The notes under the pieces: generated by a model
Database searches by the model: none
What the model was told of the DNA's origin: nothing
The model's input: only the letters and a program-made list of their open reading frames with translations
Source of the DNA: a virus
Taxonomy: Duplodnaviria > Heunggongvirae > Uroviricota > Caudoviricetes
IMG/VR virus record: IMGVR_UViG_3300031867_003838
Location: 44,671-108,670 of that record
Strand: one strand, 5' to 3'
DNA: 64,000 nucleotides
Shown here: positions 1 to 38,162 of the stretch, in pieces
Position numbering within the stretch: position 1 is the first letter of the stretch
Layout: each line of letters opens with the position of its first letter
Position numbers and translations under genes: made by a program

Positions 1-3000
1 GTGCCGTAGGTGGTTTTGTTAAACTACTTACAAGTGCTATCACAAAGGACCCAAGCGTAGGGCCAGAGATAATTAAGAACCTGCATAAGCTGTTTACCAG
101 TGAACAAGTTGGATCTCTAATATTCAAGAATTTCAAAGGCAAAGCGTTCAAAGGTCTTATAGACTCAGCAGATGATCTTACTGAAGCAATAGCAACTCCA
201 ATCGAGAAAGGCTTCACGCTTGGAGCAGAAGGATCAAGCTCTGCAGTTAGTGAGATTGTAGAAAAGTTTGCAACCGATGGTACTATAGAGGCAGCCGCTG
301 AAACGGCTGGCAGTGTTATGGCGGAAGCCACCGAGAAGGCAACAAAAAAAGGTGTAACCAAAGCCGTTCAAGATGCTGGAAAGGATGCGGCTGTCAGTGG
401 TGCTGCAGAAGCTATGGGTAATACTATTGGTGATGCTTCCGGTAAAGCTGCTAAAGAAGGTGTAACCAAAGCTGTCAAAGAGATCGGATCTGACGCAGGT
501 GCTGAAGCAGTAGGTGAAGCCATTGGTAAAAAAATTGGTGGAACCGCAGGCGAAATAATACCAGAAGGTTTAGAGAAGGCCGGTGTCGAAGGCGGAACAA
601 AAGCTGCTGCCGGTATAGCAACTGGTCTTACCGCATTTGGATGGGCTGCTGTTGCTGCTGCAATTGTGGCAGTTGTAGGCGGAGCAATTTATCTAGGATA
701 TAAACAGCAGCAAGAGAAAATCAAAAAAGAACTTGAACAAGGCGTTTCCCAATGGGATGATGACAAATCCAAGATTGAGGAATATAGACAAAGAATTAGA
801 GAACTTCGCGATGAGCTTAAAGACACAGATCTTTCTCAGGAAGATCAATCTCGAATCAAGAGTGAGCTCCTTGAAATACAGAAAGACATAGTTGAGCAAT
901 ATGGCGAGGAAGCCAGAACAATTGATTTAATTAATGGTGATCTGGAACGCCAGATGAATATATTGTCTGGCATTGCAAAAGAAAAAGCAGAGGAAAACCT
1001 GCGCACAAATCGAGAGGGTTACGAAGAAGCGAAGCGTGTAATGAATTCCAAAGTGTCTGCTACTTCATCAGGAAATATTATTCTTGAAGATCCAAATGAC
1101 GTTAAAACGATGAGTGACCTCATGAGCAGATTAAATTCCATTGAAGGCGTAAATGCATCAGTCGGAAATTATATGCGAGGGCACGATGGAATGTTTGGTT
1201 ATACGCCTGGTACCCTTCAGTATACCGTTGACATCGATTATCAAGATGTATATGACACAGTCGATGGACTTGATGAAATCGATGCAGAGATTAATAAACT
1301 TCTCAATAATCCACAAATTGATTTTAATACAAAGACGACCCTTAACACACTGCGTGCAAATTTGTTTGGCACAGATATGGTTAGCGGTGACTTCGGCAAA
1401 AACTACAGCAACTATACTCAATTTGCTGCCGGTGACAGAGCGAGGCGCGAACAGGAATTTAGCCTCCAAGGCGGAGAAGAACACATAGGCAAATTAGAAG
1501 ATGCCGTAAAGAGTTATAATAATGCAATCGCAGAAGGTGATCCTTCAAAGATCAAGGAAACACAGTTGGCCTTCGAAGATACTGCTGACGCTTTCAAGGA
1601 ATGGGCTAACCAAAAAGGATTCACGAAAGAATACGAAACATATTTTAAAGACCTCACAAGTACCATCAGCACGACAAGAGTCAACTTAATTGAATTACAA
1701 GATGCACTCTCGAATTCAACCAATTCTAACACAAAGAAACTTAACGAATCTCGCAAAGAAATCAGCTCTATGCTTGAAGAAATTAGTTCGGCTGGATTCA
1801 CGAAAGATGATACTAAATTTGGTAACGTGCTTCTTGACCAATCTAGGCAGAGTATAAGATGGACGGAAGAGAACCTTAATAAGTATAAGAAAGAGATTGA
1901 ATCTTGGGACCACCTTCAGGCAGAAGATCTTGCAAATACTGTAACGTCTGCGCTTGCAAAATCTAATACGTTTAATGTTAACGGTAAAAAGTTTGAAGTA
2001 GCGTTTAGTCCTATTCTTCAAGGTAAAGACGGTAGAGCGCAACTACTCGATTCGTCAACTCTTAATAAGTATATTAATCAAGTATTGTCTGAAGCTATGG
2101 CTGATGATGGCAAACTTGACTTGAAGGAAGTTCTTAAGATTGATACCCGTGGGATAAAAGTTGATGGTATAGAAATCAAGAATGTCATTGGTGATGTGGG
2201 CGAAGCTCTTAAAGGTCAGGCATCGCAAGCAGAGAATACAGCCAAAGCTATGAACTATCTCGGCGAGAACGGGAAGATCTCCCAGAAGGAATTGGAAGCT
2301 CAGGCTTTAGAACAAGTAGTTGCTCTTCAAAAATTAAATGAAGCTGTCAAAGAGTTTAATCTTGATTCAACGGACATTGAGAATATTCTCATACGCTTAA
2401 AAGAAGGTTTAATAAATCCGAGAGCTCTTTCAGAGGAAGAACAGGCTGTTTATGATCTTGCAAAAGCATATGGTATTATCCCGGAAAAGATTAATGAGAT
2501 AAAAGATGAAAGCATTGCGGAGTTAATTGACGTATTAAGTGCGTCTGGAACTGCTATTAAACATTTCGATGATATTGTCTCAGATTCTTTCGAGGAAATG
2601 GCTAGCGATTTGAAATCGAGTATTCGCAATGCCATTGATGGCATAGGTATGATCAATTCGGCCATCGTCAACAATATGTCTGGCAAAGGTCTGAAGATGG
2701 AATATGATGAAGAAGCTAAGAAATATATTAGCGACATCGACAATCTAAACGAATTGTTCGCAGGCTTAGAAGGCTATGACTCTTCGAAACTCTTTGAAGA
2801 TACGGCTATGGGTGTACGCCTTAATACTGATGAGTTACGTAAGCTCGAAGCTCAGAAACGCAATATTGATAAGCAGGAATTCGAGAAGAAAGAACTTACC
2901 ATGAGGCACGAGCTTCTAATCCTGAACGCAGAGATGGCTTCTCAGAACTACAGAGACGGCAAGAAGATAATAGACATCGAAAACGAAAAGATTAAGAAGC

Positions 3001-6000
3001 ATAAAGAAGAACTTGAGCAGATTGGGCATCTTAAATCCGCATACGAAGGTGAAGCGAATGCATATCAAAGATGGCTCGCCGCTCAGCAGGCAGGTGATCC
3101 AGATGCGTTATATAATAATATTGCTCAGACCGGGCTAACCCGCCTTGATGATTTAGTTGGCCAGAATAAATATAACCATCCGGAAGTCCGAGCAATACTC
3201 GAACTTCTTACTGGCAAAGATCTTTCTACTGCATCTGTCGATCAGTTAGCCGAGGCATATAGAAATCTCAATCAGTGGCTTGGCGAAACTGATTATAGTA
3301 TGAGAGAAATTCTTTCAGACAATAACAACGAGGACTTACGCCGCTTTGGAAACGAACTTGAAAAACTTGGTTATCTTGTAAATGAAGGTGGCAAGTATAA
3401 GCTATCTGATGCACTCAGCATGGATGAGGCTGCCTCAGAGCTTCAGATGGGAGTTGAAACGCTCCAAGCAATTATTGATGCATTAAATACGTATGTCACC
3501 ACATTTACTTCTGTAAAAGAGCAGCTTATTTATGAATATAATGCAACGTCTGATCGATTAGCTAAAGATCTCAATACAGCGATTACGCGTATAGACGAAG
3601 TTAATGCTGCTCTTGTTAATAACAAGTCTGGGAAAGGTTTGTCGTTTAGTTATGATCCAGTAACTAAAAAGTACACTGGCGATGTCATCAATCTGACAAA
3701 CGCATTCAAGAATTTAAAGCACTCTGTTAATGGATTTAACCCTGCCACTCTCTTCTACCGTTCCGCAACGGGCATCCGTTTGAATACTGACGAACTTCGA
3801 AAACTCCAGGCGGCAGAGAGAGGAATAATGAATCAGAAGTTTGAATCCCAAAAGATCAAACTGCAGAGAGAATTAAGTGCTTTAATGCACGAGATGCAAA
3901 TCACCTCGTTAAATGATACGGCAAAGCTCACAGATGCTGAGAAAGAGCATATTCTTACTCTCCAAGAAAAGCTTCGTAACGTCGAAATGCTTAAGGCTTC
4001 ATACGATGGTGCTACCAATGCATATCAGCGCTGGCTCGACGCACAGTCTGCTGGAGATCCTGGCGACATATACGAAAACATTGCAAACAATGGTATAAAG
4101 CGTCTCGACGAATTAATGTCGCAAGGTAAGGTAGGACATACAGAAGTCCGTGCATTGCTTGAGCTGATCACAGGTAAAGATTTATCAACTGCAAAAATCG
4201 ACCAGTTAATTGATTTATATAACGATCTTGATCGTACTATTGGGCAGACGTCAATTACTGTACGCGATCTTTTTGATACTGAGAACGGGAAAGGTGTACA
4301 AAACTTTGCTGAGGTATTGAAATCAATTGGGTATGCTACTGGCGGCGAAGGTCAAATGCAATTGACAAAATGGATCAACACGGAAGATATAGCCTATTTA
4401 ACTGGGCTATCCGAGGAATTTGTGGAAGCGAATCTTAACGCTATGAAGACCTATGGCGCTGAGTTTACGATTTTGTCCAAGGAGGTAGCAGATGCCCTCA
4501 ACTTCCTCGATCCAAAAATCGACGATTATATGGCAAAGATAAATGGCATCGCCGAGGAAAAAGGGTTGAGTGAATTACAGATTCGTTTTGACATAGCAGA
4601 ACTTAATGATACAGCAGAGATAGAAGCCGAAATTCAACATCTTACAGAAATGAGAGATAATCTTCTCGCGGAAGGTAAGATGCAGATTGATAGTACTGAA
4701 TATCAATTATTTGATAATTTGTTGGGCACATTAAACAATAAGGTGTCATGGCTTAAAGACGAACTGCCATTTCAAATACTTGATTCATCTACGATTGATG
4801 CATTAAAGCAAGCAGATGAAACATTAGATAAGCTCACGGAGACATATAGATATGCATCTAAAGCTGGTGGAACTGTAGATATCAAAGCAGATACTGCATT
4901 ATATGAAGCTATAGATGCCCTTAAAAAGTTTAAGCCGGAAGATTTAGAGTTATCCTTAAAGATGCACAACATTGATGTTTCGCCAGATGCTACCACAGAT
5001 CAAATTGTTGATGCATATATCAAAGCATTTGAAGAAGGAACTCTTAGAACCGTAGCAGAATATAATGAAAGTATTGGTGAAGGGACGGAGTCTGCTGCTG
5101 ATAATCTCACAAAGGCTTCGAAGACCATTGGCGAGACAATTACTGGAGCTGCTGATTATCTTAAGAAGAAGATTGAAGAGGCTGCCAAATCATTTGCAGA
5201 TTTCGTGACAGGAAAATCGGATAATCCTTTCTCGAAATTCTTTACGAAGGATTCTCAATCAGGTGATGGTAATGTAACCACGTCTCCCAAAATTGATACA
5301 GAATCTATACGTACTCAGACAAAAGAACTAGAAGAGTTGTCCAAGGAGCTTGAGGCTGCTCGTGCCAAAGTCAGAGAGGCGGGCCTTGATCCGTCTCAAA
5401 CCCTTGTGGGCAATATTGACTTTAGATCTGGTAGACAGGAAATACAATGGACATCTGATCTTCTTAAAGACTATGGCACACAGATTCAGTCATGGGGCGG
5501 AAACGCAGAAGATCTCCTCGGTAAGGTTTCGTCTGCAATGGTCGAAGTAGAAAAGATGCCGGTTAATGGTATGAACTTCGATGTTGCATTTACGCCTATG
5601 CTCCAAGGCGCAGGCACTGGTGGTGGCCCTGCTATTCTCAGCAAGGATTTAATGAAGTCATATCTTCATGCTGTAATCCTTGAGGCAATGAATGGTGGCG
5701 AACCATTCTCGTTTGACGCCATTTTGAAAATTGATCAGCAAGGTGTCGAAGGGTTTAAAGTGAATGGCATTCAGATACAAAATATGATTGGTGCTATTAG
5801 TGAATCTCTGGATGACGGGAAAAGCCAAGCCGAAAAGATGGGCGAGGCTATGTACTATCTCGGAAATAATGGAGAGATTGAGAAACTCGTCAAGGAGATG
5901 GATGAACTTGGGAAACCTGTTGACACTAAGGTTCAGATTAGTGTTGAAGGACAGGAGCGTATCAAAGAACTGCAGGGTTATCTTGATAAGCTCCAAGATG

Positions 6001-9000
6001 GCGAGCTGATAAATGTTGATGACCCAGAACTTCTTGGCATCCTAAGTAAAATCAATTCTTTACCAGATTCAACAAGGGTTGAAGTACTGACTCATTTTGG
6101 GCTTGATGCTGGAGCATACGACACCGCAGAGGAAATTGCGCGTGCTCTAGCCAATTCGTTTAATGAGAGTATGAATTCTGGCGCTGCTGTAACAAGTGAG
6201 AAAGTTGGATCTATAGCATCGACGGTTGAGCAAGCAGTTCAATCGATGTCCGGTGCCGTAGCACATACGGCTGAAATAGCAGAAGGATCGTCCGAGAGAA
6301 TCAAGACTAATAGCGAACTGATGTCGCAATCTCTTATCCAAGCATCAGATAAGATGACAGAGACTGCGAAGATCGTAGCATCTAGCCTTGATACAACTAC
6401 ACAGTTCTCGAAAGCTTATCAATCATCTGGGAGTAGCAATTCCACAGAATCGTCTAATTCTTCTGGCGAATCAATTAATACTGACGACGAAGTAGAAGCG
6501 TTAGAACGTCTGAAGACTGCTGCTGAAGAAGCTGCAGCCGCGAAAGAAAGTGTTAAGACCGCTAATGAAGATCTTAACATATCGGCACAAGCGTCAACCG
6601 AGGCTTTGACAAATGAAGCCCAGTCTATGGAAATGGTGGCTACTTCGGGCAGAAATGCGGCAGACGCAAAGAACGAATTAGGCGTGGCGAATCAGGCACT
6701 TACCACATCCATTGATGAAACGATTACGAAACTGAATGCTGAAGCCGAAGCACTCAATTCTTTTCTCTCGCAGAATCAGGATGGTTCAGGTATTAAAATA
6801 GGACTTGATACTACAGAGTACGATGAATTCTCCGAGAAGCTTGCTAACGATGAATCACAAGATCACATAATAAACGCCAAAGCAACGCTTGCCGTAGAAG
6901 GTCAAGAGTTATTCGACACGGCATCCGCATCAAAGGAATATTTGGCGACAGATACAAAGGGTGTATCTGCTCAAGATGTACAGAACATCCCTGAGCTTCA
7001 GACGCAGAATACCCTGAAGATGGAGAATGCAAAGAGTACGACCGGTACTTCGGCGCAGAATGTTCTTAATATGGATGAAATGCAGAACGCATTGAGCCTT
7101 AAGAATAGTCTCGCTGGTACAACGACAGGATACATCTACCTTAATATAGATGGTGCTATCAATGCTCTTAATAGTCTCCAGGATCGTATTAATAGCATGC
7201 AAAACCAGACGATCTATGTCAATGGATCTGCCAACTCATCATTCGCAACTGGTACTGCCCTCTCTCGCTTCTATGGGAATGCTTATGCCAAAGGTAACTG
7301 GGGTACTAAAAAGACTGAAGAAGCCTTACTAGCAGAAGTAGGTCCTGAGATATTGGTCAATCCGTCTACAGGCAGATGGGAACTCGTAGGTCAACATGGG
7401 CCTGTCATGAAGAAGGTTCCTAAGGGATCTATCATCTTCAACCACAAGCAAACCGAAGAGATCCTGAAACACGGACATACCAATAGTCGTGGCCAGGTCG
7501 AAGGTGCGGCACACTTATCAGGCACCGCGTATGGTTATGGTGGTTGGAATTGGGATTCTAATAAAAATAGAACCAACGATTCTTACTTCCCAGATTCTGA
7601 AGATAATGATGTTGAGATCGCAGACGAGATCAACAACTACGACTATTCTTCTCCTACCTATAATAATTATGGTAGTGACAGTGGCACCATCAATGGGCAA
7701 CAGAATTATTCCAGTGGTGGAGATATAGCTGAGGAAATACCATATCATGAAGGCGGAGATGAACCTGATCGCGTTTATACTAAAATGTATCGGTTGCCAG
7801 ATGGAGCCAAAGATGAGTTTCTTGATCCTTCAGAAGCCAGACTTTATACCGGATATTATGAACCTCTCAAGAATAGGGATTATGTCAATAATGGCCCTAA
7901 ACCGGTAAGTCAAAACATTGCGCCTGATAGCTATATATCAGATACTACATCTTCAACCAAACCAATAACATCTGAAGGGCCAGATGAGTTTATTGATGAT
8001 GTTACAGACACGGTTACTAAGACTTCTGAAAAAGTCAGTAAGAGTGCAGAGAAAGCATTCGACCAAATTGTAGACTGGATTGAAATCTATGTTGATCGAC
8101 TTGACAACCGCTTGGCTGACCTTGCGAAGAAAGCGGACGACGCATTTTTAGGATATAACGACCGCATTAAAGCGTCTAAGAAATATGTCGCTGTCGCTGA
8201 ATCGAAGATAGATGATTATAAAGCGGCTGCGGATGCTTATCTTAATATGGCAAATAACGTCGACATTAGTCATAGCGAAATGCGCCGTATCAGAAACGGT
8301 GACCTTGACATAGAACATGTTAAAGACGAGGAAAAGTACGACAAACTGATGGAGTACAAAGATTACTATGAAAAGTATCTTGCTGCTCTTGAGAAAGTTG
8401 AAGGACTTAGTACCGCAAAGTATGAACAGATGCAGAAGCGTTTCCAGTTGACCAACGATTTGTTCTCTCAAAAGGATGAAGAATTCCAGTCCAAGATGGA
8501 AGTAGTCCAGGCGACGATTGAATCATTGCGTGCTAATGGTGAGGATATTTCTGAACACTTTGAAGATTATCAGGAACTTCAGCAGCTTGAGAAAGATACA
8601 ATAAGGGAAAGAGCTCGTCATATTAAAGCGCTGCAAAAGAGTTATAAGGAAGCCATAGATAATGGTCTCGATGAAACATCGGAAGCCGCCATTCAAATGC
8701 GCAGTACAATTAATAGCCTTGAGGCAGAGAACAAAAAGGCGACTGCAAATATCACTAGCTATTGGCGGGCATGGATGCAGCAAGTCAAGGAACAGTTTGA
8801 TGACATTGACGAATACTATTCATTGAAGTCACAGGTTATTGACAACCGTATTACTGCAATTTCTACTACCAAAGACATATCAACTGAAATGGGATATAAG
8901 GAATCGGCCGTATACCAGAAGCAGATGATGCGTTATGAGGAGTTGCGGAAACCTATTCTCGAAGCAGAACTGGAACGTCTTGAAAACATGCTTACCAATG

Positions 9001-11657
9001 TTAAGAAAGGTACTAAGCAATGGTACACCATGCTCAATACGATTGACGGTGTTAAAGAGGAGATAAGACAGTCTACTCTCTCATTGCTTCAAATGCAGAA
9101 CGCGATTGATAAGCTTAAGTTCCAGCAGTTTGAAGATTACATCGCTAAGATCCATACGAACCTTGTTGACGATCCGCAATTCATGATCGATTACATGAGT
9201 TACTTCAAACTATTCAACGACAACGGTTCATACAATAAACTTGGTCAGGCTACGGAAGCTCTGCACACGGAGAAGTATTTTGCACTGATCAACGAGCGTG
9301 ATAGGTATAATAATAAAGTCGCTGATATAGAAAAACAGCTTCAGAGTAATCCAAATGATGAGGAACTTCTGAGTAAGAAGAAGGAATATATTGAGCTGAG
9401 TCAGCAAGCGACAATCGCCGCAATGAATGAGAGGAAGGCCGTCCAAGACCTTGTAAAGGAAGGTATGCAGATTGAGCTTGATAACCTTCAGAAGCTGATC
9501 AATAAATACAACGAGTCTTTGGATAACGCAAAGAACCTGTATGACTATCAGAAGAACATTGCTAAGCAGACTAAGAACATTGCCAAACTTGAGAAACAGG
9601 CGACTGCTTTCTCATTCGACAATTCCGAAGAAGGTCAGGCAATGCGTCAGAAGATTTCTGTCCAGCTTGAAGAAGCGAAAGAACAGCTTGAGGAAACCGA
9701 GTATCAACATTACATCACCGAACAGAAGAAGATCCTCAGCGACATGTACTCCAAATATGAGCAGAGACTCAACGAGCTTTCGGATAACATCACCGCACTC
9801 TTTAAGGATGCGATGGCAAGATCCGAATCGAACAAGAACCAAATCTGTAGTACGATTCTTGAATCTCTCGGAGTAGATGTCAACCCATATCTCGAAAATA
9901 TTTTCAAGTCGGAAGAAACTATAAAGTCGGCTACGATTCATGAGACCAGGGCAATCGACAAAGATGAACTTGAACTGATTCATTCAGCAGATGATTACGC
10001 GAGAACTCCTCATGATAGAAAGGAGTATGAAGGCGGTACTGGAAAACCTCCTATCCCAGAAAAGACCGAAACCAAAGAGGATAAATCAAAAGACGAAGAC
10101 AAAAACAAAAAACAGGATGATAAAACTGATGAAGTAAAATTCGAAAAAGAAACAATATTCAGGGCTACTTCCAAAGTTTATAATGAGGCCATTCAGAATT
10201 TATTAAATCAGTATCAAAAGGAGATCAACAACAATCAAACCCAAATGGCAAAACAAACAGTATCGGACCTGACCAAAATTCTTAACCAAATTATTGCTCA
10301 AGGCAACGCAGACAAGTTAGAACTTGATAAAGTTAAGAAGGCTTATTCGAATATCGAGGCGGCTGTTAGATCAACAGGTATTGATTCGACACAAACAAAG
10401 TTTGGTAATGTTGACCTTAGCAATCGTAAGAGTATTGCGTGGACTAACACCAACCTGAATAAATACGCAACACAGCTTGGATCGTGGGGCATCAAAGCTG
10501 AAGACATCAAGGGTACAACCACGAATCTTATGGCAGATACACACAGGTTTGATGTCAATGGTCAGAAAGTATCCGTGACATTTACCCCAATGTTAGAGGG
10601 GGCAGATGGCAAGGCAACATTGCTCACCCAGGATTCCGTTTATAAATACATTGAGACCATACTCAAGAAAGCCACATGGAATGGCGAAGAGTTAAACTTC
10701 GACAAGGTTCTTAAGCTTGATGCCAAAGGTCTTGAAATTGAAGGCGAGAAGGTCAAAGGTATTATTGCCGAAATCAGTAACGCAAAACAGGGACAGCAAA
10801 GTCACGCCGAGAAGCTTTGGAAAGCATTACAATACATAGGACCAGACGGAGAACTCGGAAAAATTAAAACAGCTCTCGAAGAATTAGAAAGGATCGAGGC
10901 TCTTAAGACTATGGCAGAACAGCTTAAGAAGCTCGGCATTGAAGCCGTTGATGTCGAGAAGGTGATTAAACGTCTGAAAGAAGCAGGCACTGAAGCTGTC
11001 ACGGCCACTGATATCAAGAAAGTTACTACCACACTTCCTACAAAACCAACTACGAACACGCCCAAAACACCTACTACCAAAACATCTACCCCAACAGTAG
11101 ATAAGTCGCTAGAAGAAAAAATAAATAATCACATAGATGAACTTAAGAAGAAAGTAGCTGCCGGTAGCAAGGCAGCGAAGGCTTACTGGACAGACGATAA
11201 AATTGAATCGTATCGTGCGTATTTGTTACGAACAGGTGGTCTTGCATCTGGATCGAAGAAGATCTCTAAAAACGAAATTGCATGGACACAGGAAAATAAG
11301 CCGGAAACGATTGTGCGCAAATCAGATCACGCAGTGCTTACACGTCTTGGCAAAGGCGACCGCGTTTATAACGCAGCTGCTTCAGAGAATATGTGGAAGG
11401 CTGCAAATGATCCGCTTACTTATATTAAAGATGCCTTGTCTGACACACCTGTTCAGGCAGGATCTTCTGTGGCCGGTACGTCAATTGGCAATATTACGTA
11501 TAGCGTGAACATTCCAATTGAGCGCGTACAGGATTACAACGATTTCGTAAACCAGATGCGTGCAGATGGCAAATTTGAAAAGATGATCCAGTCGATGACG
11601 ATTGACAGGATTACAGGTGGAAGCAAACTTGCCAAAAATAAATATCAGTGGTCTTAA
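1..11657 (+). CDS. Tail tape measure protein, 5'-truncated by the window edge (3779 aa visible; frame open back to nt 3)
   Basis: Giant ORF with no stop upstream in frame. N-terminal Gly/Ala-rich hydrophobic segment (GIATGLTAFGWAAVAAAIVAVVGGAIYLGY) followed by long coiled-coil, K/E-rich sequence. Internal protein-level repeats: three ~150-aa units (KFGNV.L...R.SI.WT..NLNKY...WG) and two ~230-aa units (VNNKSGKGL...NAYQRWL.AQ.AGDP). Lies immediately upstream of Dit/Tal-like genes. Confidence 0.7.
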   Translation, partial: AVGGFVKLLTSAITKDPSVGPEIIKNLHKLFTSEQVGSLIFKNFKGKAFKGLIDSADDLTEAIATPIEKGFTLGAEGSSSAVSEIVEKFATDGTIEAAAETAGSVMAEATEKATKKGVTKAVQDAGKDAAVSGAAEAMGNTIGDASGKAAKEGVTKAVKEIGSDAGAEAVGEAIGKKIGGTAGEIIPEGLEKAGVEGGTKAAAGIATGLTAFGWAAVAAAIVAVVGGAIYLGYKQQQEKIKKELEQGVSQWDDDKSKIEEYRQRIRELRDELKDTDLSQEDQSRIKSELLEIQKDIVEQYGEEARTIDLINGDLERQMNILSGIAKEKAEENLRTNREGYEEAKRVMNSKVSATSSGNIILEDPNDVKTMSDLMSRLNSIEGVNASVGNYMRGHDGMFGYTPGTLQYTVDIDYQDVYDTVDGLDEIDAEINKLLNNPQIDFNTKTTLNTLRANLFGTDMVSGDFGKNYSNYTQFAAGDRARREQEFSLQGGEEHIGKLEDAVKSYNNAIAEGDPSKIKETQLAFEDTADAFKEWANQKGFTKEYETYFKDLTSTISTTRVNLIELQDALSNSTNSNTKKLNESRKEISSMLEEISSAGFTKDDTKFGNVLLDQSRQSIRWTEENLNKYKKEIESWDHLQAEDLANTVTSALAKSNTFNVNGKKFEVAFSPILQGKDGRAQLLDSSTLNKYINQVLSEAMADDGKLDLKEVLKIDTRGIKVDGIEIKNVIGDVGEALKGQASQAENTAKAMNYLGENGKISQKELEAQALEQVVALQKLNEAVKEFNLDSTDIENILIRLKEGLINPRALSEEEQAVYDLAKAYGIIPEKINEIKDESIAELIDVLSASGTAIKHFDDIVSDSFEEMASDLKSSIRNAIDGIGMINSAIVNNMSGKGLKMEYDEEAKKYISDIDNLNELFAGLEGYDSSKLFEDTAMGVRLNTDELRKLEAQKRNIDKQEFEKKELTMRHELLILNAEMASQNYRDGKKIIDIENEKIKKHKEELEQIGHLKSAYEGEANAYQRWLAAQQAGDPDALYNNIAQTGLTRLDDLVGQNKYNHPEVRAILELLTGKDLSTASVDQLAEAYRNLNQWLGETDYSMREILSDNNNEDLRRFGNELEKLGYLVNEGGKYKLSDALSMDEAASELQMGVETLQAIIDALNTYVTTFTSVKEQLIYEYNATSDRLAKDLNTAITRIDEVNAALVNNKSGKGLSFSYDPVTKKYTGDVINLTNAFKNLKHSVNGFNPATLFYRSATGIRLNTDELRKLQAAERGIMNQKFESQKIKLQRELSALMHEMQITSLNDTAKLTDAEKEHILTLQEKLRNVEMLKASYDGATNAYQRWLDAQSAGDPGDIYENIANNGIKRLDELMSQGKVGHTEVRALLELITGKDLSTAKIDQLIDLYNDLDRTIGQTSITVRDLFDTENGKGVQNFAEVLKSIGYATGGEGQMQLTKWINTEDIAYLTGLSEEFVEANLNAMKTYGAEFTILSKEVADALNFLDPKIDDYMAKINGIAEEKGLSELQIRFDIAELNDTAEIEAEIQHLTEMRDNLLAEGKMQIDSTEYQLFDNLLGTLNNKVSWLKDELPFQILDSSTIDALKQADETLDKLTETYRYASKAGGTVDIKADTALYEAIDALKKFKPEDLELSLKMHNIDVSPDATTDQIVDAYIKAFEEGTLRTVAEYNESIGEGTESAADNLTKASKTIGETITGAADYLKKKIEEAAKSFADFVTGKSDNPFSKFFTKDSQSGDGNVTTSPKIDTESIRTQTKELEELSKELEAARAKVREAGLDPSQTLVGNIDFRSGRQEIQWTSDLLKDYGTQIQSWGGNAEDLLGKVSSAMVEVEKMPVNGMNFDVAFTPMLQGAGTGGGPAILSKDLMKSYLHAVILEAMNGGEPFSFDAILKIDQQGVEGFKVNGIQIQNMIGAISESLDDGKSQAEKMGEAMYYLGNNGEIEKLVKEMDELGKPVDTKVQISVEGQERIKELQGYLDKLQDGELINVDDPELLGILSKINSLPDSTRVEVLTHFGLDAGAYDTAEEIARALANSFNESMNSGAAVTSEKVGSIASTVEQAVQSMSGAVAHTAEIAEGSSERIKTNSELMSQSLIQASDKMTETAKIVASSLDTTTQFSKAYQSSGSSNSTESSNSSGESINTDDEVEALERLKTAAEEAAAAKESVKTANEDLNISAQASTEALTNEAQSMEMVATSGRNAADAKNELGVANQALTTSIDETITKLNAEAEALNSFLSQNQDGSGIKIGLDTTEYDEFSEKLANDESQDHIINAKATLAVEGQELFDTASASKEYLATDTKGVSAQDVQNIPELQTQNTLKMENAKSTTGTSAQNVLNMDEMQNALSLKNSLAGTTTGYIYLNIDGAINALNSLQDRINSMQNQTIYVNGSANSSFATGTALSRFYGNAYAKGNWGTKKTEEALLAEVGPEILVNPSTGRWELVGQHGPVMKKVPKGSIIFNHKQTEEILKHGHTNSRGQVEGAAHLSGTAYGYGGWNWDSNKNRTNDSYFPDSEDNDVEIADEINNYDYSSPTYNNYGSDSGTINGQQNYSSGGDIAEEIPYHEGGDEPDRVYTKMYRLPDGAKDEFLDPSEARLYTGYYEPLKNRDYVNNGPKPVSQNIAPDSYISDTTSSTKPITSEGPDEFIDDVTDTVTKTSEKVSKSAEKAFDQIVDWIEIYVDRLDNRLADLAKKADDAFLGYNDRIKASKKYVAVAESKIDDYKAAADAYLNMANNVDISHSEMRRIRNGDLDIEHVKDEEKYDKLMEYKDYYEKYLAALEKVEGLSTAKYEQMQKRFQLTNDLFSQKDEEFQSKMEVVQATIESLRANGEDISEHFEDYQELQQLEKDTIRERARHIKALQKSYKEAIDNGLDETSEAAIQMRSTINSLEAENKKATANITSYWRAWMQQVKEQFDDIDEYYSLKSQVIDNRITAISTTKDISTEMGYKESAVYQKQMMRYEELRKPILEAELERLENMLTNVKKGTKQWYTMLNTIDGVKEEIRQSTLSLLQMQNAIDKLKFQQFEDYIAKIHTNLVDDPQFMIDYMSYFKLFNDNGSYNKLGQATEALHTEKYFALINERDRYNNKVADIEKQLQSNPNDEELLSKKKEYIELSQQATIAAMNERKAVQDLVKEGMQIELDNLQKLINKYNESLDNAKNLYDYQKNIAKQTKNIAKLEKQATAFSFDNSEEGQAMRQKISVQLEEAKEQLEETEYQHYITEQKKILSDMYSKYEQRLNELSDNITALFKDAMARSESNKNQICSTILESLGVDVNPYLENIFKSEETIKSATIHETRAIDKDELELIHSADDYARTPHDRKEYEGGTGKPPIPEKTETKEDKSKDEDKNKKQDDKTDEVKFEKETIFRATSKVYNEAIQNLLNQYQKEINNNQTQMAKQTVSDLTKILNQIIAQGNADKLELDKVKKAYSNIEAAVRSTGIDSTQTKFGNVDLSNRKSIAWTNTNLNKYATQLGSWGIKAEDIKGTTTNLMADTHRFDVNGQKVSVTFTPMLEGADGKATLLTQDSVYKYIETILKKATWNGEELNFDKVLKLDAKGLEIEGEKVKGIIAEISNAKQGQQSHAEKLWKALQYIGPDGELGKIKTALEELERIEALKTMAEQLKKLGIEAVDVEKVIKRLKEAGTEAVTATDIKKVTTTLPTKPTTNTPKTPTTKTSTPTVDKSLEEKINNHIDELKKKVAAGSKAAKAYWTDDKIESYRAYLLRTGGLASGSKKISKNEIAWTQENKPETIVRKSDHAVLTRLGKGDRVYNAAASENMWKAANDPLTYIKDALSDTPVQAGSSVAGTSIGNITYSVNIPIERVQDYNDFVNQMRADGKFEKMIQSMTIDRITGGSKLAKNKYQWS

Positions 11658-11666
11658 ATATAGATT

Positions 11667-11695
11667 GGGCTGCCGCTTAATGCGGCAGCTCTTAT
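11667..11695 (+). terminator. Hairpin after the tape measure gene (gctgccgc-ttaat-gcggcagc + tcttat)
   Basis: 8-bp perfect stem directly after the TMP stop. Weak U-tract. Confidence 0.3.
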
Positions 11696-11712
11696 GATTG
11701 GAGGAAAGGAAT

Positions 11713-12021
11713 ATGTTTGACGGAATAAAACTGAAAATGCTTCAAAAGGAAAACGCTTCATTGAAAGATTTGGTCATGTCACTCAAAGAAGAGAATGAAT
11801 CACTCGTTACTCAGAAGGAAGACTTGGAACGACGCATTAAATTATACGAGGGAAGAATGCATCTGGCAGATGACATGATCTCACATTACCAGGATGCGAT
11901 GAAGAACATTGAAGAAATGAAGAAGGAATACAACAGAGCAATTGAAGAAACCCAATTGATGAGGTCGGAATACCGAGGAAAGTTAGACGACCTGCTTAAT
12001 AGCATAAGGATAGAGGAATGA
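11713..12021 (+). CDS. Hypothetical coiled-coil protein
   Basis: ORF with RBS GGAGGAAAGGAAT before the second ATG (the ORF track starts at 11698). Heptad-like E/K-rich sequence. Confidence 0.5.
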   Translation: MFDGIKLKMLQKENASLKDLVMSLKEENESLVTQKEDLERRIKLYEGRMHLADDMISHYQDAMKNIEEMKKEYNRAIEETQLMRSEYRGKLDDLLNSIRIEE

Positions 12022-12022
12022 T

Positions 12023-12832
12023 ATGTACGCCTTGGATTTTGAATATGACGGCCGTAGGTTAAGCGATTACAATTTTATGATTTGTAATTTTGGCGATGGA
12101 GAAGATACGGCGACAGCTGGATCGAAGATTACCTTTGAGACCGTCCCTGTTCATGACGGCAAACGGTATCTTCTATCACACACAAAATATGATGAATATA
12201 TTGAAACGACGTTTACGATTTGTAAGAACCCATGTTATTACGATGACTTGGTTATTACCAACGCAGAATACAGAGATATAATGCGTTGGCTGAATCGACG
12301 CAACTTTTACAGGTTCCAGCTTTTCGACCAGTATGATCAGTATAGGGAATCATGCTGGTATGAGGCTAGTTTCAATATTGAAAAATATATGTCAGAAGGA
12401 AAGCTGGTAGGACTTATATTAACTTTGACTACTAATACTCCATTCGGATACGGGCAAGATCAAACCGTAACGTGGAATATCACGGACACTGGTACACCGA
12501 AGATCCTGAGCAATATTTCAGACGAGATCGGTTACATATATCCGTCCATGAAGATCACGCTTCGGTCTTCTGGTAATCTCAGAATCTATAATGATCTTGA
12601 AGATTGTGAGATGATCATCAAGAATTGTTCGTCCGGTGAAGTAATCACAATAGATGGAATGACTCATATTATACAGTCGTCCAATAGTTCTCATAAGATT
12701 TACAATGATTTTAATTTTGTATATCTGAGAATTGCAAATACTTTGAATAATCGAAACAACAGGATTACGGTTTCATTACCGTGCTTGTTTGAATTAACTT
12801 ATACACCAATCATTAAAGACGCGCCAGACTAA
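12023..12832 (+). CDS. Distal tail protein (Dit)-like, by position
   Basis: 269 aa, RBS GGAGGAATGAT ATG. Sits between the TMP and the Tal-like gene as in siphovirus tail-tip modules. Assignment is positional, not from a recognised motif. Confidence 0.4.
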   Translation: MYALDFEYDGRRLSDYNFMICNFGDGEDTATAGSKITFETVPVHDGKRYLLSHTKYDEYIETTFTICKNPCYYDDLVITNAEYRDIMRWLNRRNFYRFQLFDQYDQYRESCWYEASFNIEKYMSEGKLVGLILTLTTNTPFGYGQDQTVTWNITDTGTPKILSNISDEIGYIYPSMKITLRSSGNLRIYNDLEDCEMIIKNCSSGEVITIDGMTHIIQSSNSSHKIYNDFNFVYLRIANTLNNRNNRITVSLPCLFELTYTPIIKDAPD

Positions 12833-12839: not shown

Positions 12840-15800
12840 GTGACACATATGGCGGTAAGGATACAATTCGACAGCAATCATACTGCGATCAGGCCGACAT
12901 TTGTTGTTGCCACTAGATCAGGAGACAAACTTGGGTATATCCCTACGGCAGAATTGCATGTGCATGATATATTTTCTGCGACAGGTCAAGCGGCAGAGGT
13001 CTCCTTCGACGTTTATAAATATGATGGTGAAGTACGCTATACTCACTGGGAAGAGATCAAGAACCTCCGCCTATGTTGGTGCAAGGAATGGGACCAGTGG
13101 TACGAGATGCAAGTTGACACGCAGGATGAACGAGCCATAGTAAAGCACGTAACGTGTACTGCTTTGGGTGAAGCAGAATTGTCTCAAACTATGATTTATG
13201 GTCTTGAGATCAATACGGAAAACGACATCGCAAGAGATGATTACAACCATTATGGACTTCCGGATGAGACGCACGCACTCTGGGATGACCGCTTCATGCA
13301 CAACTCGATCTTGTATAGACTTATGTCTAAAGTACCACATTACTCAATTGATCATGTCGACGCGACGATTGCAAAAGAACAAAGGACATTTTCATTCAAC
13401 GGAATGAGCGTCTATGACTGCCTTCAGGAAATTGCCCTTGAATATGAATGCGTTGTATTTGTCCACGCAAATTCAAATCCAGACGGAAGTATACACCGAG
13501 GTATTAGTCTCTATGATTTACAAAATACTTGCCAATCATGTGGAGAGCGTGGAGAGTTTTTACACGTATGCAGCAAGTGTGGTAGTTCAAATATCAAACG
13601 CGGGTACGGCGAAGACACGACGGTATTTGTTAACACTGAGAATCTTGCTGAAAATATCTCGTTGACAACAGATCTCGGAGAAGTAAAGAACTGCTTTAAA
13701 CTAAGCGGCGGAGATGATCTGATGACAGCCGCCATTGTTTCATGTCTGCCAACGGGTACACCGTATATCTGGATGTTTACGGAAGAAACCAAGAACGATT
13801 TTACGCCGGCATTGAAATCCAGGTTTGAACAGTACCAACGAGATTACGAGTATTACAATAATACATACCCGACTTACATCGACGCATCATTAGTTTCGAA
13901 TTACAACAGTCACATCATGAAGTACCGCCAGTATGACGGGAAACTTGAAGCTATCCAAAATCCGATTGTTGGATATTCGAGATTGATGAAAATCTATTAC
14001 GACGTAATTGATTTCGAACTGTACCTTGAGCACTCGCTTATGCCGACTAGAAAGATGTCGTCGACCAGCGCGTACTCACAGTCACTTAAGATTAGCAATT
14101 CCGACTCTTCTATGAAGAAGGTTGCGGTAAACATAATCAATATTGATTACTGCACGGTCAGTACTGCAGATGGAGCTGCTCTATCTGTGGCAAAATCACT
14201 TGTCGACCCACGTTATAGTGTCGAGCTTGAGAGTTCAACTTATGACGAGGGAACTCATAAGTGGTCAGGCACGTTCAAGATTAAGAATTATTCTGATGAG
14301 ACAGACTCAACCACTAGAAGTGTAAGTAATGTCGAAATCATTTCTGACAAAGATCTGTATACAAGACAGCTGATGAAGCGTGCGCTGAAAGACAAGATCA
14401 GTTCTGCGACAGAAGAAACCGCAAGTGACATTGTAGAACTCTGCGAATTGTCGAGAACTTCTTTCAGAAGAGCATTGAAGAATTACAGCCAAGCTTGTTT
14501 GAAGGAATTCTCAATGTTAATCCAAACGTGTTTGGATGTCATGACGGAACAGGGAGTCACAGACGGAAGCAGTTGGGACGCAGAAATATATCCTCATCTA
14601 TACGAGCCGTATCATACGAAGCTGTGTGATGTACAGGATGAACTAGCAATTCGTGATCACGAAGTCATGACAATCACTGGCGTTGTCGACGCAAATGGTA
14701 AGATTATACGTCCAGGTTTAAAGACTGTGATCGAAGAAAAGCTCGACTATATTCAGAAGCAACTCGAAATGAAACCGTATTTCGGAGAACAGCTTTACAA
14801 TGAGCTTCTGGCATTCAGACGAGAAGACGAATATACGAACAGCAATTACATTTCTGATGGTCTAAGCAACCACGAATTATTTGCCAGAGCGAAGAAGTTT
14901 CTTGAACTGGCAGAAAGAGATTTGTTCAAGTCAGCTCATATTCAACATACGATCGACTCAACCATGCAGAATCTTCTTGCCATGGAAGAGTTCAAGCCCA
15001 TTGTCGATTACTTCACGGTAGGCAACTGGATCAGGATTGAAATTGACGAGCAGCTATTTATGCTTCGACTTGTTTCATATGATATCAACTTCGAAGACTT
15101 GTCCGAGTTTAGTGTCACATTCTCTGACGCAAAGCTATTAACCAATGGTATCAGTGACCTAGAGTCGTTATTGAAAGGCGCATCTGGAATGGCTACATCA
15201 TTCACGTCCGTGCAACGACAGGTAGCGAAGGTTGCAGATACGGCCGGTCAAGTTGATGATTGGTTTACAAATGGACTTGATGTTTCAAAATCGCTCGTTA
15301 CTGATCAGTCAAACAACTGCTGTGTCACATGGGATGCGAACGGAATTTTGTGTAGGGACTACTCTCCCACTACAGATTCCTATAGCGATTGTCAGCTTAA
15401 GATCCTTACGAACGGCATGTATTTGACAACAGACAACTGGTTAACCATCAGAGCCGCCATTGGCAAATTCTACTACTACGATCCTTTCGACGAAATGACG
15501 CTTAAAGAAGGTTATGGTATCAACGGCGAAACGATTGTCGGCAGATTGATTCTTGGGCAAGAGCTTGGCATTTATAACGCCGAAGCCAACATGGCGTTCA
15601 ACGAAGACGGCCTTCTAATCCGCAATACATCTGGATCGATTGAAGTCGCGATCAATCCAAACGACCCTGACGTCATCTCGATTAAGAACAACACTGAAAC
15701 GGTTTTGGGATTCACGACCGATGTTGAAGACGGCGAGACACGTCTTTATATTCGTGGAATGATTGAAGCTGATAAGGGTCAGATTGGCGGTTGGTCAATT

Positions 15801-16676
15801 GGCAAATCGAAAATCTACGCGGGCGATGCTGTCACTGGTACGGTGGCGCTCAGACGTCCGCAGGCAGGTAGGAGCACAATTGTTTTTGCGGCAGGCGGAA
15901 AGAGCCATGATGACTACCATGACTGTCCTTTCATTATTAGATCGACTGGTGATTTCGAAGCTAAGAAAGGTAGCATAGCCAATTGGAAAATTGCTACTGA
16001 TAAATTGTACGGAGGCAGAGAAGGCGACGGTAGCTGTACGATGGTTGGTATTGCAACACGTGAAGGTGGTGCGGTTTTTGCTGCCGGTGGTTATACATTT
16101 GAAACGCAGGATACGTACCGCTTCAAGGTGACAAAGCGCGGTCAGTGCTTCACATCGGACGGCATGGTTCATACATCTGACGCAAAGATGAAGGACATTA
16201 TTGGGGACATCGGATTTGCAAAGGATTTCATAATGAACCTTGAGCCAAAGACTTACATGTGGAAGATGGGCGATCATCGCAGAACCAGGATGGGATTCGT
16301 AGCACAAGATGTCGCGAGGATTTGCAAGGACATGAATAGAAATTTGGCAGTTGTAACTGCTTCTTATAAAGGTGAAGTTGATGGCGCATACTACGGCGAG
16401 GAGACCGATGATACGAAACTCACATGGGGAATCACTTATGACGAGATCATTGCTCCCCTTGTTAAGGTGGTGCAAGATCAGCAACGTGAAATAGAAATTT
16501 TGAAGGAGAGAATAAATGGAGATAACGAATGGCAGCTTGCTGCTGATGAACGACGTGCTGAACAAGTACGCGAACAGGAGACTTCCGCAGAAGATATCAT
16601 ACGCGATAGTTCGCAACCTGACGATTCTGGCGAAGGAGATGAACGTGTACAACAGAGCACTGGAAAAGATTATTGA
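12840..16676 (+). CDS. Tail-associated lysin/fibre (Tal-like) with C-terminal intramolecular chaperone (peptidase S74-like) domain
   Basis: 1278 aa. C-terminus GFVAQDVARI...WGITYDEIIAPLVKVVQDQQREIEILKERI matches the autoproteolytic chaperone motif of endosialidase and tail-spike proteins. Internal Zn-ribbon CQSCGERGEFLHVCSKCGSSN. Follows the Dit-like gene. Confidence 0.6.
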   Translation: MTHMAVRIQFDSNHTAIRPTFVVATRSGDKLGYIPTAELHVHDIFSATGQAAEVSFDVYKYDGEVRYTHWEEIKNLRLCWCKEWDQWYEMQVDTQDERAIVKHVTCTALGEAELSQTMIYGLEINTENDIARDDYNHYGLPDETHALWDDRFMHNSILYRLMSKVPHYSIDHVDATIAKEQRTFSFNGMSVYDCLQEIALEYECVVFVHANSNPDGSIHRGISLYDLQNTCQSCGERGEFLHVCSKCGSSNIKRGYGEDTTVFVNTENLAENISLTTDLGEVKNCFKLSGGDDLMTAAIVSCLPTGTPYIWMFTEETKNDFTPALKSRFEQYQRDYEYYNNTYPTYIDASLVSNYNSHIMKYRQYDGKLEAIQNPIVGYSRLMKIYYDVIDFELYLEHSLMPTRKMSSTSAYSQSLKISNSDSSMKKVAVNIINIDYCTVSTADGAALSVAKSLVDPRYSVELESSTYDEGTHKWSGTFKIKNYSDETDSTTRSVSNVEIISDKDLYTRQLMKRALKDKISSATEETASDIVELCELSRTSFRRALKNYSQACLKEFSMLIQTCLDVMTEQGVTDGSSWDAEIYPHLYEPYHTKLCDVQDELAIRDHEVMTITGVVDANGKIIRPGLKTVIEEKLDYIQKQLEMKPYFGEQLYNELLAFRREDEYTNSNYISDGLSNHELFARAKKFLELAERDLFKSAHIQHTIDSTMQNLLAMEEFKPIVDYFTVGNWIRIEIDEQLFMLRLVSYDINFEDLSEFSVTFSDAKLLTNGISDLESLLKGASGMATSFTSVQRQVAKVADTAGQVDDWFTNGLDVSKSLVTDQSNNCCVTWDANGILCRDYSPTTDSYSDCQLKILTNGMYLTTDNWLTIRAAIGKFYYYDPFDEMTLKEGYGINGETIVGRLILGQELGIYNAEANMAFNEDGLLIRNTSGSIEVAINPNDPDVISIKNNTETVLGFTTDVEDGETRLYIRGMIEADKGQIGGWSIGKSKIYAGDAVTGTVALRRPQAGRSTIVFAAGGKSHDDYHDCPFIIRSTGDFEAKKGSIANWKIATDKLYGGREGDGSCTMVGIATREGGAVFAAGGYTFETQDTYRFKVTKRGQCFTSDGMVHTSDAKMKDIIGDIGFAKDFIMNLEPKTYMWKMGDHRRTRMGFVAQDVARICKDMNRNLAVVTASYKGEVDGAYYGEETDDTKLTWGITYDEIIAPLVKVVQDQQREIEILKERINGDNEWQLAADERRAEQVREQETSAEDIIRDSSQPDDSGEGDERVQQSTGKDY

Positions 16677-29698: not shown

Positions 29699-30898
29699 AT
29701 GCCACAAAATATTATTCAAGGTGTAAAAGTAGATGGTACCATCTACAAATATGATTATGAAAGTCTGGAGAACCTTCCAGACCCGGAACTGCCATCAGCT
29801 ACGGCAAGTGATGAAGGGAAAGCACTTGTGATCAACTCTACCGGTGATCCGGCGTGGAAAACACCCGCGTCTGGCCTGCCGTCAGCTACGGCAAGTGATG
29901 AAGGAAAAGCGCTTGTGGTCAATTCCACCGGTGATCCGGCGTGGAAAACACCCGTGTCTGGCCTGCCGTCATCTACAGCGAGCGATTCAGGGAAAGCACT
30001 TATGGTCAATTCCACCGGTGATCCGGCATGGTCAGCAATCCCGTCGGACTTACCTGCCCATGTTTCCAATGACAATGGTAAAGCCCTTGTGCTTAACAGT
30101 ACAGGAAATCCAGCCTGGCGAGATATCCTTCCAAAATATTCACCGCAAGATGCAGGAAAGGTTCTTGTTCTTGGATCATCAGAACCAGGAGGGAGCGGAA
30201 ATGAAGGACCTCAGTGGGGCAGTGCACTTCCGACTGGTTCTTCTATCGGATTTGCACTGGTGATCGACTCGACAAGGAAACCGGCATGGAAAGATCTGAA
30301 ATATCCTGCCTGTGGTTCCCAAGATAGGGGAAAGACACTTGTGGTTAATACGACAGGTGAACCTGTCTGGAGCACTCCAAGTGGAGCACTCCCGACCCTT
30401 GGATCTCATGATGAGGGAAAGGCTCTGGTCGTTAATGATAGTGGCCGTGTAGCATGGGCCGAAGTACTGCCGACATGTGACACCCCCGATAGTGGCAAGG
30501 TACTACGAGTCAATTCAACTGGTAATGCGGCATGGAGTAATATGTCTGATGTATTAGTGTGTGATAGTACCGACGCAGGGAAAGCACTCGTGGTTAACCC
30601 GTCAGGTAAACCGGTGTGGGAAGAACTTCTTCCGACACATGATACCAGTTATGATGGATCTGATGCAGGTAAAGTACTTACGGTGGCTACTAATGGTTCA
30701 CTTACCTGGGAAGAAGGAGGAAGCGGCGGCCTGTCACTCCCGGACCCAAGCGACACTAATGAAGGGGATGTTCTGAAGGCTGATGGGTCTGGTGCTTATT
30801 CTTGGGGAAGTCTTCTTCCAGTTTATGATACGTCTGATGACGCGGGAAAAGTGCTCACGGTTACATCGAGCGGGCTCCGCTGGAACAGTCTGTCGTAA
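29699..30898 (+). CDS. Repeat protein (about 12 copies of a ~29-aa motif ..D.GK.LVVN.TG.P.W...LP)
   Basis: 399 aa. The first three repeats are near-identical at DNA level. Confidence 0.5.
   Translation: MPQNIIQGVKVDGTIYKYDYESLENLPDPELPSATASDEGKALVINSTGDPAWKTPASGLPSATASDEGKALVVNSTGDPAWKTPVSGLPSSTASDSGKALMVNSTGDPAWSAIPSDLPAHVSNDNGKALVLNSTGNPAWRDILPKYSPQDAGKVLVLGSSEPGGSGNEGPQWGSALPTGSSIGFALVIDSTRKPAWKDLKYPACGSQDRGKTLVVNTTGEPVWSTPSGALPTLGSHDEGKALVVNDSGRVAWAEVLPTCDTPDSGKVLRVNSTGNAAWSNMSDVLVCDSTDAGKALVVNPSGKPVWEELLPTHDTSYDGSDAGKVLTVATNGSLTWEEGGSGGLSLPDPSDTNEGDVLKADGSGAYSWGSLLPVYDTSDDAGKVLTVTSSGLRWNSLS
29789..30049 (+). repeat. 3 x 87-bp tandem repeat (about 90 percent identical), each encoding LPSATASDEGKALV.NSTGDPAWKTP.SG
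   Basis: Units start at 29789, 29876 and 29963. Confidence 0.85.
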
Positions 30899-33366: not shown

Positions 33367-33377
33367 AAGGAGGCACT

Positions 33378-37356: not shown

Positions 37357-37453
37357 TTTTTTCATCGAGAAAGAAACAAGACACTCATTGGGCGTGGGCA
37401 CGCGGAAGTGTGCCTCGCCCTTCACAATACTGAAGAAAGGAGAAATTCTCGTT

Positions 37454-37951: not shown

Positions 37952-37982
37952 AACAGGAGGAATAAAGGGTGCATTTCTGTAT

Positions 37983-38107: not shown

Positions 38108-38162
38108 ATAAACGTGTCGCAATTTCATAAGACATATAAATGAGGAGAAATGTTTCCCGTGG

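Follow-up and report, generated by a model that had tools for sequence, protein, structure and literature searches.

Tail tape measure proteins (TMPs) are the textbook molecular rulers of phages, and some of them house modules that do not serve as a ruler. The TMP of phage T5, pb2, carries a peptidase. That of mycobacteriophage TM4 has an embedded Rpf-like motif (PMC1796659), while gp96 of the Thermus phage P23-45 is a ‘giant’ of 5,002 residues with a fused N-terminal virion RNA polymerase, in a phage with an ‘extremely long tail’ (PMC10770324). Here, we analyze a truncated open reading frame (ORF) at the 5′ edge of a 64,000-nucleotide stretch of caudoviral DNA (positions 44,671 to 108,670 of the IMG/VR record IMGVR_UViG_3300031867_003838; hereinafter the window). 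Very probably, this ORF represents the last 11.65 kb, at the 3′ end, of a tail tape measure gene from a large phage of the siphovirus type, which belongs to an uncultured gut/rumen clade.

Among the described systems, the TP901-1-family TMPs (PF10145, PhageMin_Tail; TIGR01760) share with the window protein a locus position upstream of Dit/Tal-type tail-tip genes, a helical body, a hydrophobic segment after the core domain, and the core domain itself, which is found in relatives of the window protein and would also be part of its missing exon. The window protein is a giant, several-fold longer than the typical members of that family, and differs from them in having three copies of an unannotated globular domain (hereinafter module A) and an internal architecture of motifs and spacers. 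With P23-45 gp96 it has in common a size range of 4,000–5,500 aa, and gp96 offers a precedent for a ruler combined with folded functional domains; members of the present family (5,349–5,454 aa) are even longer. The window protein differs from gp96 in lacking a metallopeptidase domain (Pfam) and in its type of host (gut/rumen Gram-positive versus Thermus). The TM4 and T5 pb2 TMPs likewise contain a non-ruler module inside a ruler and provide a plausible functional analogy for module A.

A truncated reading frame in a tail locus

The ORF lies in frame 3 of the + strand, which also carries the other features of this locus, and is free of stops from nt 3 to the TAA at 11655–11657 (3..11657), giving 3,884 codons plus the stop. 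As there is no stop upstream in this frame, it runs off the 5′ end of the window. The original prediction, made from the sequence alone, had described a TMP of more than 3,779 aa that was still truncated; the truncation stands, while the visible length has to be corrected, the lower figure being the ORF lister's count from the first ATG at nt 318 (318–11657). The visible protein as a whole returned nothing significant in sequence searches of Pfam, PHROGs, NCBIfam and the PDB. With no TMP signature in the visible residues, its identity rests on genomic context and on homologs.

Tail-tip genes follow directly 3′ of the ORF, with the pair of a DUF6558 tail protein and an S74 fiber starting within 400 nt. 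First comes a 107-aa ORF (11698..12021), which has 102–107-aa counterparts after the TMP in four relatives (loci L001, L003, L005 and L007). It is followed by the DUF6558 phage tail protein in the tail-tip (Dit) position (12023..12832; PF20195, 3.4e-38; PF20753, 3.1e-33), a gene found 3′ of the TMP in every relative examined, and by a 1,278-aa tail fiber or minor tail protein with a C-terminal S74 intramolecular chaperone (12840..16676; phrog_6211, several tail fiber PHROGs and PF13884). The order of the tail-tip genes after the TMP is identical in L001, L003, L005, L007 and L008, and no sheath gene was seen near the examined relative loci. Just 5′ of the TMP gene, a resolvase (RusA/RuvC-type Holliday junction) and 2–3 small unannotated ORFs occur in L003 (268–2534), L006 (898–2173) and L008 (8292–9983). 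This is an unusual order for a tail module, in which the small ORFs may be divergent chaperones.

The family as a whole was revealed by an exhaustive HMMER search with a module A profile; a word-index profile search had recovered only a single fragment. The closest relative recovered in this way (P0021) is a 3,809-aa protein from a bovine metagenome (locus L007), which is 67.6% identical to the window protein over aa 1186–3884 (2,757 aligned columns) and is followed by the same downstream genes as in the window. Upstream of it, an ORF of 1,306 aa or more passes the TIGR01760 cut-off and ends inside PF10145 (profile positions 2–123 of 201); joining this upstream exon to P0021 yields PF10145 positions 2–201 of 201 in one stretch with 78.4 bits. 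In this relative, PF10145 is N-terminal to the transmembrane (TM)-like segment and lies upstream of the point matching the start of the window. PF10145 is also carried by the upstream ORFs of L001 and L003, and by two further family members, P0022 and P0164. The last of these, a 5,454-aa single ORF on ~150–160-kb human-gut contigs, is labeled ‘TP901 family phage tail tape measure protein’ in its source, and some other members have been automatically annotated as TMP or ‘minor tail protein’. P0164 is surrounded by a RuvC-like resolvase, two small ORFs, the TMP, DUF6558, a Prophage_tail-like protein and fibers, in agreement with the downstream order of the window. Thus, the tape measure identity proposed in the original prediction is supported by position, homology and the neighborhood in relatives.

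The window protein is not unique but a member of a sizeable family known only from metagenomes. The family members span 2,000–5,454 aa, including single ORFs of 5,299, 5,349 and 5,454 aa, and the related contigs are of 141–176 kb. Hence, the description of the protein as exceptionally large is apt against characterized phages but not within its own family. None of the cultured phages in 50,697 GenBank phage records have module A or the second repeated module described below (module B); two unverified fecal metagenome records gave weak matches. The longest member, P0164, carries a PG_binding_1 domain, which is lacking in the window protein.

Repeated modules and the predicted length of the tape measure protein

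To compare the protein with itself, we cut it into overlapping 200-aa pieces and used BLAST to match each against the rest. Two sets of significant repeats emerge, with E-values down to 2.5e-46 for module A and 3.8e-57 for module B. Module A is a unit of ~215 aa (~200–230) present in three copies that are 36–41% identical, as supported by the self-BLAST and a three-way alignment: aa 590–805 (1770..2417), aa 1786–2000 (5358..6002) and aa 3451–3665 (10353..10997). The first and third copies align at nt 1812–2402/10395–10979 with 38.6% identity over 197 aa (E 2.5e-46), the first and second at nt 1812–2279/5400–5879 (E 1e-32), and the second and third at nt 5409–5915/10404–10892 (E 2.8e-33). The second copy is 79.7% identical to its ortholog in P0021, and the third sits in a stretch (aa ~3305–3741) absent from the L001, L003 and L005 relatives. 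The three copies in the window are mutual best non-orthologous BLAST matches, narrowly so (158, 130 and 118 bits, versus 121 for the best foreign copy). This fits, and marginally favors without proving, an old intragenic triplication that would predate the split from the L007 lineage.

The AlphaFold2 model of the third copy, built from a 35-sequence alignment, predicts a compact α/β core of ~145 residues followed by long helices (pLDDT 91.6, pTM 0.82). The module has no sequence match in Pfam, NCBIfam, PHROGs or the PDB; its sole BFVD matches are a pair of proteins from uncultured ‘Siphoviridae sp.’, and we found its motif strings in no paper. It is nonetheless present in at least 299 clusters (at 50% identity; 262 of these at E ≤ 1e-10), nearly all of which are giant TMP-like proteins. 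The best 150 module A proteins have a median length of 2,223 aa, with 27 of them being at least 3,000 aa long, and 71 contain a PhageMin_Tail-like region, which lies upstream of module A in all 71. Almost all members have a single copy and seven have two; besides the window protein, only P0021 has three. The family signature is T.FGNID.NNRQ.LEWT…KYK…SWG…IAFSPMLQT…LLS.DTV..YI…LDA.G.EIDG.KIK.LIADIG.TA…MHY.G.DG, with invariant polar residues (Asn19, Arg25, Tyr99 and Asp123 in the numbering of alignment A2) and no conserved Cys/His/Glu catalytic set. By analogy with other TMPs, it is most likely, if speculatively, a functional or anchoring domain that would refold after ejection, for example, to bind the cell wall.

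Module B, of ~340 aa per copy, is mostly helical and occurs as a direct tandem: aa 836–1165 (2508..3497) and aa 1152–1495 (3456..4487). In self-BLAST and pairwise alignment, nt 2508–3527 match nt 3456–4487 in three collinear segments with 37–47% identity and E-values down to 3.8e-57. Its model comprises predicted long helices, small hairpins and a helical C-terminal subdomain (pLDDT 70.8). A structure-based name for it had to be dropped, the only matches being to generic coiled coils and helical bundles. Module B is single-copy in 18 other family proteins, with the tandem duplication seen in the window only; unit duplications of this kind have been described in the evolution of TMPs (PMC3271669). 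The original prediction had the places of both sets of repeats right, as well as the motif of module A, with unit sizes (~150 and ~230 aa) that were too small. Its statement that the protein is ‘built from’ duplicated modules goes too far, since they account for ~1,300 of the 3,884 visible residues, or about one third. Its remarks that it could not name the repeated globular module and that it recognized no lysozyme or M23 motif are both upheld, the latter by searches of the visible protein in which peptidoglycan hydrolase domains (M23, lysozyme/SLT, Rpf and NlpC/P60) gave no match at Pfam E ≤ 0.1 or NCBIfam E ≤ 0.01.

The remaining segments are of diverse character. A hydrophobic TM-like segment at aa 203–232 (GIATGLTAFGWAAVAAAIVAVVGGAIYLGY; 609..698), the sole Kyte–Doolittle window above 1.6 in the protein, is preceded by Ala/Gly-rich repeats (aa 100–200) and has an equivalent in P0021 downstream of the PF10145 region. 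A conserved mid-protein motif region at aa 2427–2506 (…LLAEVGPEILVNPSTGRWELVGQHGPVMKKVPKGSIIFNHKQTEEIL…; …AEVGPEILV…KGSIIFN…; 7281..7520) is 37.5% identical in the fecal phage record MT835469.1 and occurs in 78 of 150 family representatives, typically 950–1,200 aa before the C-terminus; it cross-matches the motif of the C-terminal domain. Next come a low-complexity region rich in N, D, Y, S and G (aa ~2500–2670; 7500..8012) and a helical region (aa 2930–3305; 8790..9917) that is homologous to the 3′ exon of relatives, with 33–38% identity to the proteins P0001–P0020 (E to 1e-64). A K/D/E-rich linker (aa ~3340–3385) and the Pro/Thr-rich linker (aa 3675–3700; 11025..11102), both of these, as with the low-complexity region, read from the sequence, flank the third copy of module A; the latter linker is where it had been predicted to be. 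The conserved C-terminal domain (aa 3741–3884; 11223..11654) is 43–59% identical to the C-termini of P0001–P0020 and 35–37% to MT835469.1. Overall, the TM-like segment, the long helices of module B and those beside the module A core give the protein a predicted helical character.

The extent of the missing part can be gauged from the closest relative. Window residue 52 aligns with residue 286 of P0021, whose exon starts about two thirds of the way through PF10145, and a further 1,299 aa or more come from the L007 upstream exon, which is itself cut by the end of its contig; together they imply a TMP of at least ~5,100 aa in L007. By analogy, the 5′ part missing from the window would encode an N-terminal extension of ~1,100 aa or more along with the PF10145 core and some 235 aa, and the complete TMP would probably be of ~5,000–5,400 aa. 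An exact 44-mer from the window edge (nt 9–52) had no match in viral, genome and metagenome contig collections, and the N-terminal 600 aa had none in a database of 5.8 billion proteins. In relatives, the N-terminal extension of ~1,100 aa or more before PF10145 (L007 3–3923; P0022 aa 1–1064) has neither a Pfam match nor the DxDGD signature of RNA polymerases. That signature is likewise absent from the window protein, whose N-terminus is unseen, and from P0021, P0022 and the 1,306-aa L007 upstream exon. Going by the P23-45 precedent, the N-terminal extension of the giant TMPs could be a fused ejected enzyme.

The action of TMPs is established from lambda gpH, T5 pb2, TP901-1 and SPP1. Accordingly framed for the window protein, TMP oligomers would have their C-terminal end fixed in the Dit/Tal hub of the tail tip, and tail tube subunits would polymerize round the extended, mostly helical TMP up to its N-terminal end, such that TMP length sets tail length. 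During infection the TMP would be expelled first, with the hydrophobic segment helping to form a DNA conduit; module A might then refold and, speculatively, bind or anchor in the envelope. At 0.15 nm per residue, the 3,884 visible residues would correspond to a tail of ~580 nm, while a rough count of ~2,500–3,000 helical residues would give ~375–450 nm for the visible part alone. Most of the chain would be ‘tape’, and the tail therefore several hundred nanometers long.

This estimate meets its most serious competitor in the possibility that the protein is a TMP but a padded one, in which the copies of module A, the stretches of low complexity and perhaps the ~1,100+ aa of the unseen N-terminus are cargo or spacer, with a tail far shorter than 0.15 nm times the number of residues. 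The fold of module A, compact and globular rather than a coiled coil, the three low-complexity or linker regions (aa 2500–2670, 3340–3385 and 3675–3700) and the folded N-terminal polymerase of the 5,002-aa P23-45 TMP (PMC10770324) all speak for it. However, a rough count places only ~20–25% of the visible residues in globular cores and linkers, the rest, including module B, being predicted or apparently helical, and the P23-45 tail is extremely long despite its cargo domain. On balance, we consider a tail far below the ruler estimate possible but rather unlikely. The original prediction had left the choice between a very long tail and a padded tape measure, which sequence does not settle; with a helical module B and a module A inserted as a compact globular domain, both probably apply.

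Introns, homing endonucleases and the integrity of the gene

Proteins of 540–670 aa in the database match only aa ~2930–3305 and 3741–3883 of the window protein, raising the question of whether the giant ORF is one gene or two. In L001, L003 and L005, the upstream PF10145 ORF stops where window residues 2788–2796 align (tblastn) and a second ORF follows in another frame. The equivalent site in the window, the codon of residue 2788 (…LMEYKDY…; 8364..8366), is intron-less, while in L001 and L005 it holds a group I intron (Rfam RF00028). In L001 this is a full-length match (91.3 bits; 9180–9468) that starts at the last codons of the upstream ORF, and coding homology to the window protein is already present 420 nt before any start codon that the ‘second gene’ could use. 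Splicing U9179 to position 9488 would give an in-frame, stop-free junction and a predicted product of ~4,260 aa. At this site L005 has a 372-aa ORF with RF00028 matches, weaker than that of L001, to either side. The 315-nt gap of L003 has no Rfam match. Thus, the apparent two-gene state of L001 and L005 is due to group I introns. Recoding of a stop codon was dropped as a cause of the split relatives, as the gaps have stops in all frames and the intron explains L001. A programmed frameshift joining the two ORFs was likewise dropped: there is a −1 frame change in three independent loci, yet the intron accounts for L001 and L005.

Other family members are interrupted elsewhere. MT835469.1 (L006), a 176-kb fecal phage record, has a 468-aa N-terminal TMP exon matching TMP PHROGs, two HNH homing endonuclease genes, and a 2,722-aa single ORF collinear with module B, the internal motif, aa 2871–3309 and the C-terminal domain of the window protein. 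In L007, the 1.6-kb interruption of PF10145 yielded no intron in Rfam searches; that it is an insertion would follow only from the restoration of the domain upon joining and the presence of a zf-FCS/TRASH ORF inside it. The interruptions of the TMP genes of the clade are located at 9180–9487 in L001, 7597–8966 in L005, 3924–5566 in L007 and 4426–12245 in L006. At least 20 family representatives have the internal motif 950–1,200 aa before the C-terminal domain in the same protein. Hence, the one-ORF layout is the norm and the window carries an intron-less allele. The family resembles other intron-interrupted phage structural genes in that the TMP genes of relatives are broken by group I introns and HNH-type endonuclease ORFs; the likeness holds for the family and not for the window copy, in which no intron is found across the visible 11.6 kb. 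Tape measure genes and phage group I introns are mentioned together in existing papers. Owing to these introns and homing endonuclease insertions, gene callers fragment the TMP genes of this clade.

Against this background, an in-frame joining, specific to the window lineage, of a TMP ending near aa 2790 with a downstream tail gene (aa ~2930–3884) appears improbable. The separately called 540–670-aa proteins would be its unfused counterparts, and the L003 gap, with no detected intron and with a GTG start available, is compatible with it; however, what interrupts L001 is a genuine group I intron that could be spliced in frame, and coding homology there extends 5′ of any possible start codon, L005 shows intron signals and an intron-borne ORF at the same site, and MT835469.1, P0021 and the 20 or more other representatives hold both parts in one ORF. 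Slightly less probable still is that the protein is no ruler at all but a giant protein of the virion, ejected or internal, or else an adhesin of the surface encoded beside tail genes, as might be suspected from the lack of a TMP domain match in the window portion and from nearby adhesin-like genes (LRR/Laminin_G and DUF6273 proteins). Countering this, the genes of the relatives continue into a PF10145/TIGR01760 exon, the tail-tip genes have no other TMP candidate beside them at any locus examined, and a helix-rich protein with a TM-like segment is typical of TMPs. Least of all do we credit an assembly artefact or chimera, in which the ORF would have been lengthened by a metagenomic assembler that, misled by the repeats, joined segments end to end or duplicated them: internal repeats do exist, and the tandem of module B is confined to the window (P0021 and 17 other proteins being single-copy), but the repeat copies are merely 36–47% identical at the protein level and nt 1–11700 contain no direct DNA repeat of 25 nt or more, so that an assembler cannot confuse them and the duplications must be old rather than a misassembly of near-identical repeats, and all three copies of module A recur at orthologous positions, followed by the same genes, on an independent contig from a bovine metagenome. 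The original prediction came with the caveat that the ORF might be a fusion or result from misassembly, and the check for either gave no reason to abandon it: the splits in some relatives are group I introns and there are independent single-ORF relatives.

Some points nevertheless weigh against reading the ORF as the 3′ part of a giant siphoviral ruler gene. The PF10145/TIGR01760 core domain is absent from the visible 3,884 aa in Pfam, NCBIfam and PHROGs searches, as expected of a truncated ORF, and the region upstream of the TMP in relatives yielded no recognizable genes for a tail tube, sheath or chaperone. The siphovirus assignment would follow from the Dit/Tal-like tail-tip genes only. The N-terminal third is merely ~34% identical to P0021, and the size given for the missing part is an extrapolation, as the N-termini are divergent and no near-identical one was found. 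Finally, three internal globular domains per chain would have to be fitted into the lumen of the tail tube.

The wider window and the significance of giant tape measure proteins

The rest of the window is that of a phage, with genes for a CHAP+SH3_3 endolysin, an integrase, an RNA ligase and an intein-containing NrdD, as well as tRNAs. The endolysin is followed by a tyrosine integrase (42597–45478), the former pointing to a Gram-positive host and the latter suggesting a temperate lifestyle; this endolysin and a homolog of the window protein in a metagenome-assembled genome of Dorea sp. make a Gram-positive anaerobe of the gut or rumen the probable host. After the tail fiber gene come a 942-aa protein (18773–21601) with BspA-type leucine-rich repeats and a Laminin_G_3/sialidase-N-like lectin domain, and a 640-aa DUF6273/‘Hoc-like’ protein (22646–24568), both probably adhesins that bind the host or mucus. 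A 399-aa ORF with no Pfam match (29699–30898) contains at least eight tandem copies of an 81–87-nt (~29-aa) repeat with the motif DEGKALVINSTGDPAWK and may represent a fiber or decoration repeat. Also among the structural genes is a 580-aa fusion of family-2 glycosyltransferase and UDP-glucose/GDP-mannose dehydrogenase domains (30931–32673).

A complete diversity-generating retroelement spans 33348–39467. Its template repeat (37985–38121; 137 nt) lies just upstream of an RT-2 RNA (38112–38319; Rfam RF03077, 101 bits) and the reverse transcriptase gene (38163–39467), and its two variable repeats (35044–35180 and 37226–37362) are at the 3′ ends of the genes for two paralogous ~606-aa DUF6273 proteins, with 25 of 35 and 23 of 31 mismatches, respectively, falling on template adenines. 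NrdD, the anaerobic ribonucleotide reductase (55626–58655, − strand; PF13597, PF14890 and PF14528), hosts an intein with a LAGLIDADG endonuclease domain, another selfish element in this genome. Two tRNA genes are found on the − strand (52325–52396 and 52789–52861), and a strand switch coincides with a change in the sign of the GC skew near 46 kb.

Three aspects of the clade appear to be undescribed in the libraries searched, namely the size class of its TMPs, the widespread module A, and the load of introns and homing endonucleases; our literature search returned no usable account of long-tailed rumen or gut phages. More tentatively, and with greater doubt than hope of being right on every count, we posit that module A represents a novel family of functional domains embedded in TMPs, which hundreds of lineages of uncultured phages possess but all domain and structure libraries searched lack, and which would refold once ejected and then act on the Gram-positive cell envelope or anchor itself there; that the clade might have the longest known phage tails (~0.6–0.8 µm, on rulers of 4,000–5,454 aa); and that its ruler genes might be unusually frequent targets of group I introns and homing endonucleases. 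Module A, of which each chain here has three, is frequent in metagenomes and modeled with confidence, yet invisible to Pfam, PHROGs, NCBIfam and the PDB, which raises the questions of its role and of how internal globular domains are accommodated in the tail tube lumen. As the TMP gene calls of the clade are fragmented, TMP lengths and the tail-length statistics built on them are underestimated. Rulers of 4,000–5,454 aa would extend the known range beyond the record holder P23-45, and predict sub-micron tails in a well-studied habitat from which no such phage has been cultured.

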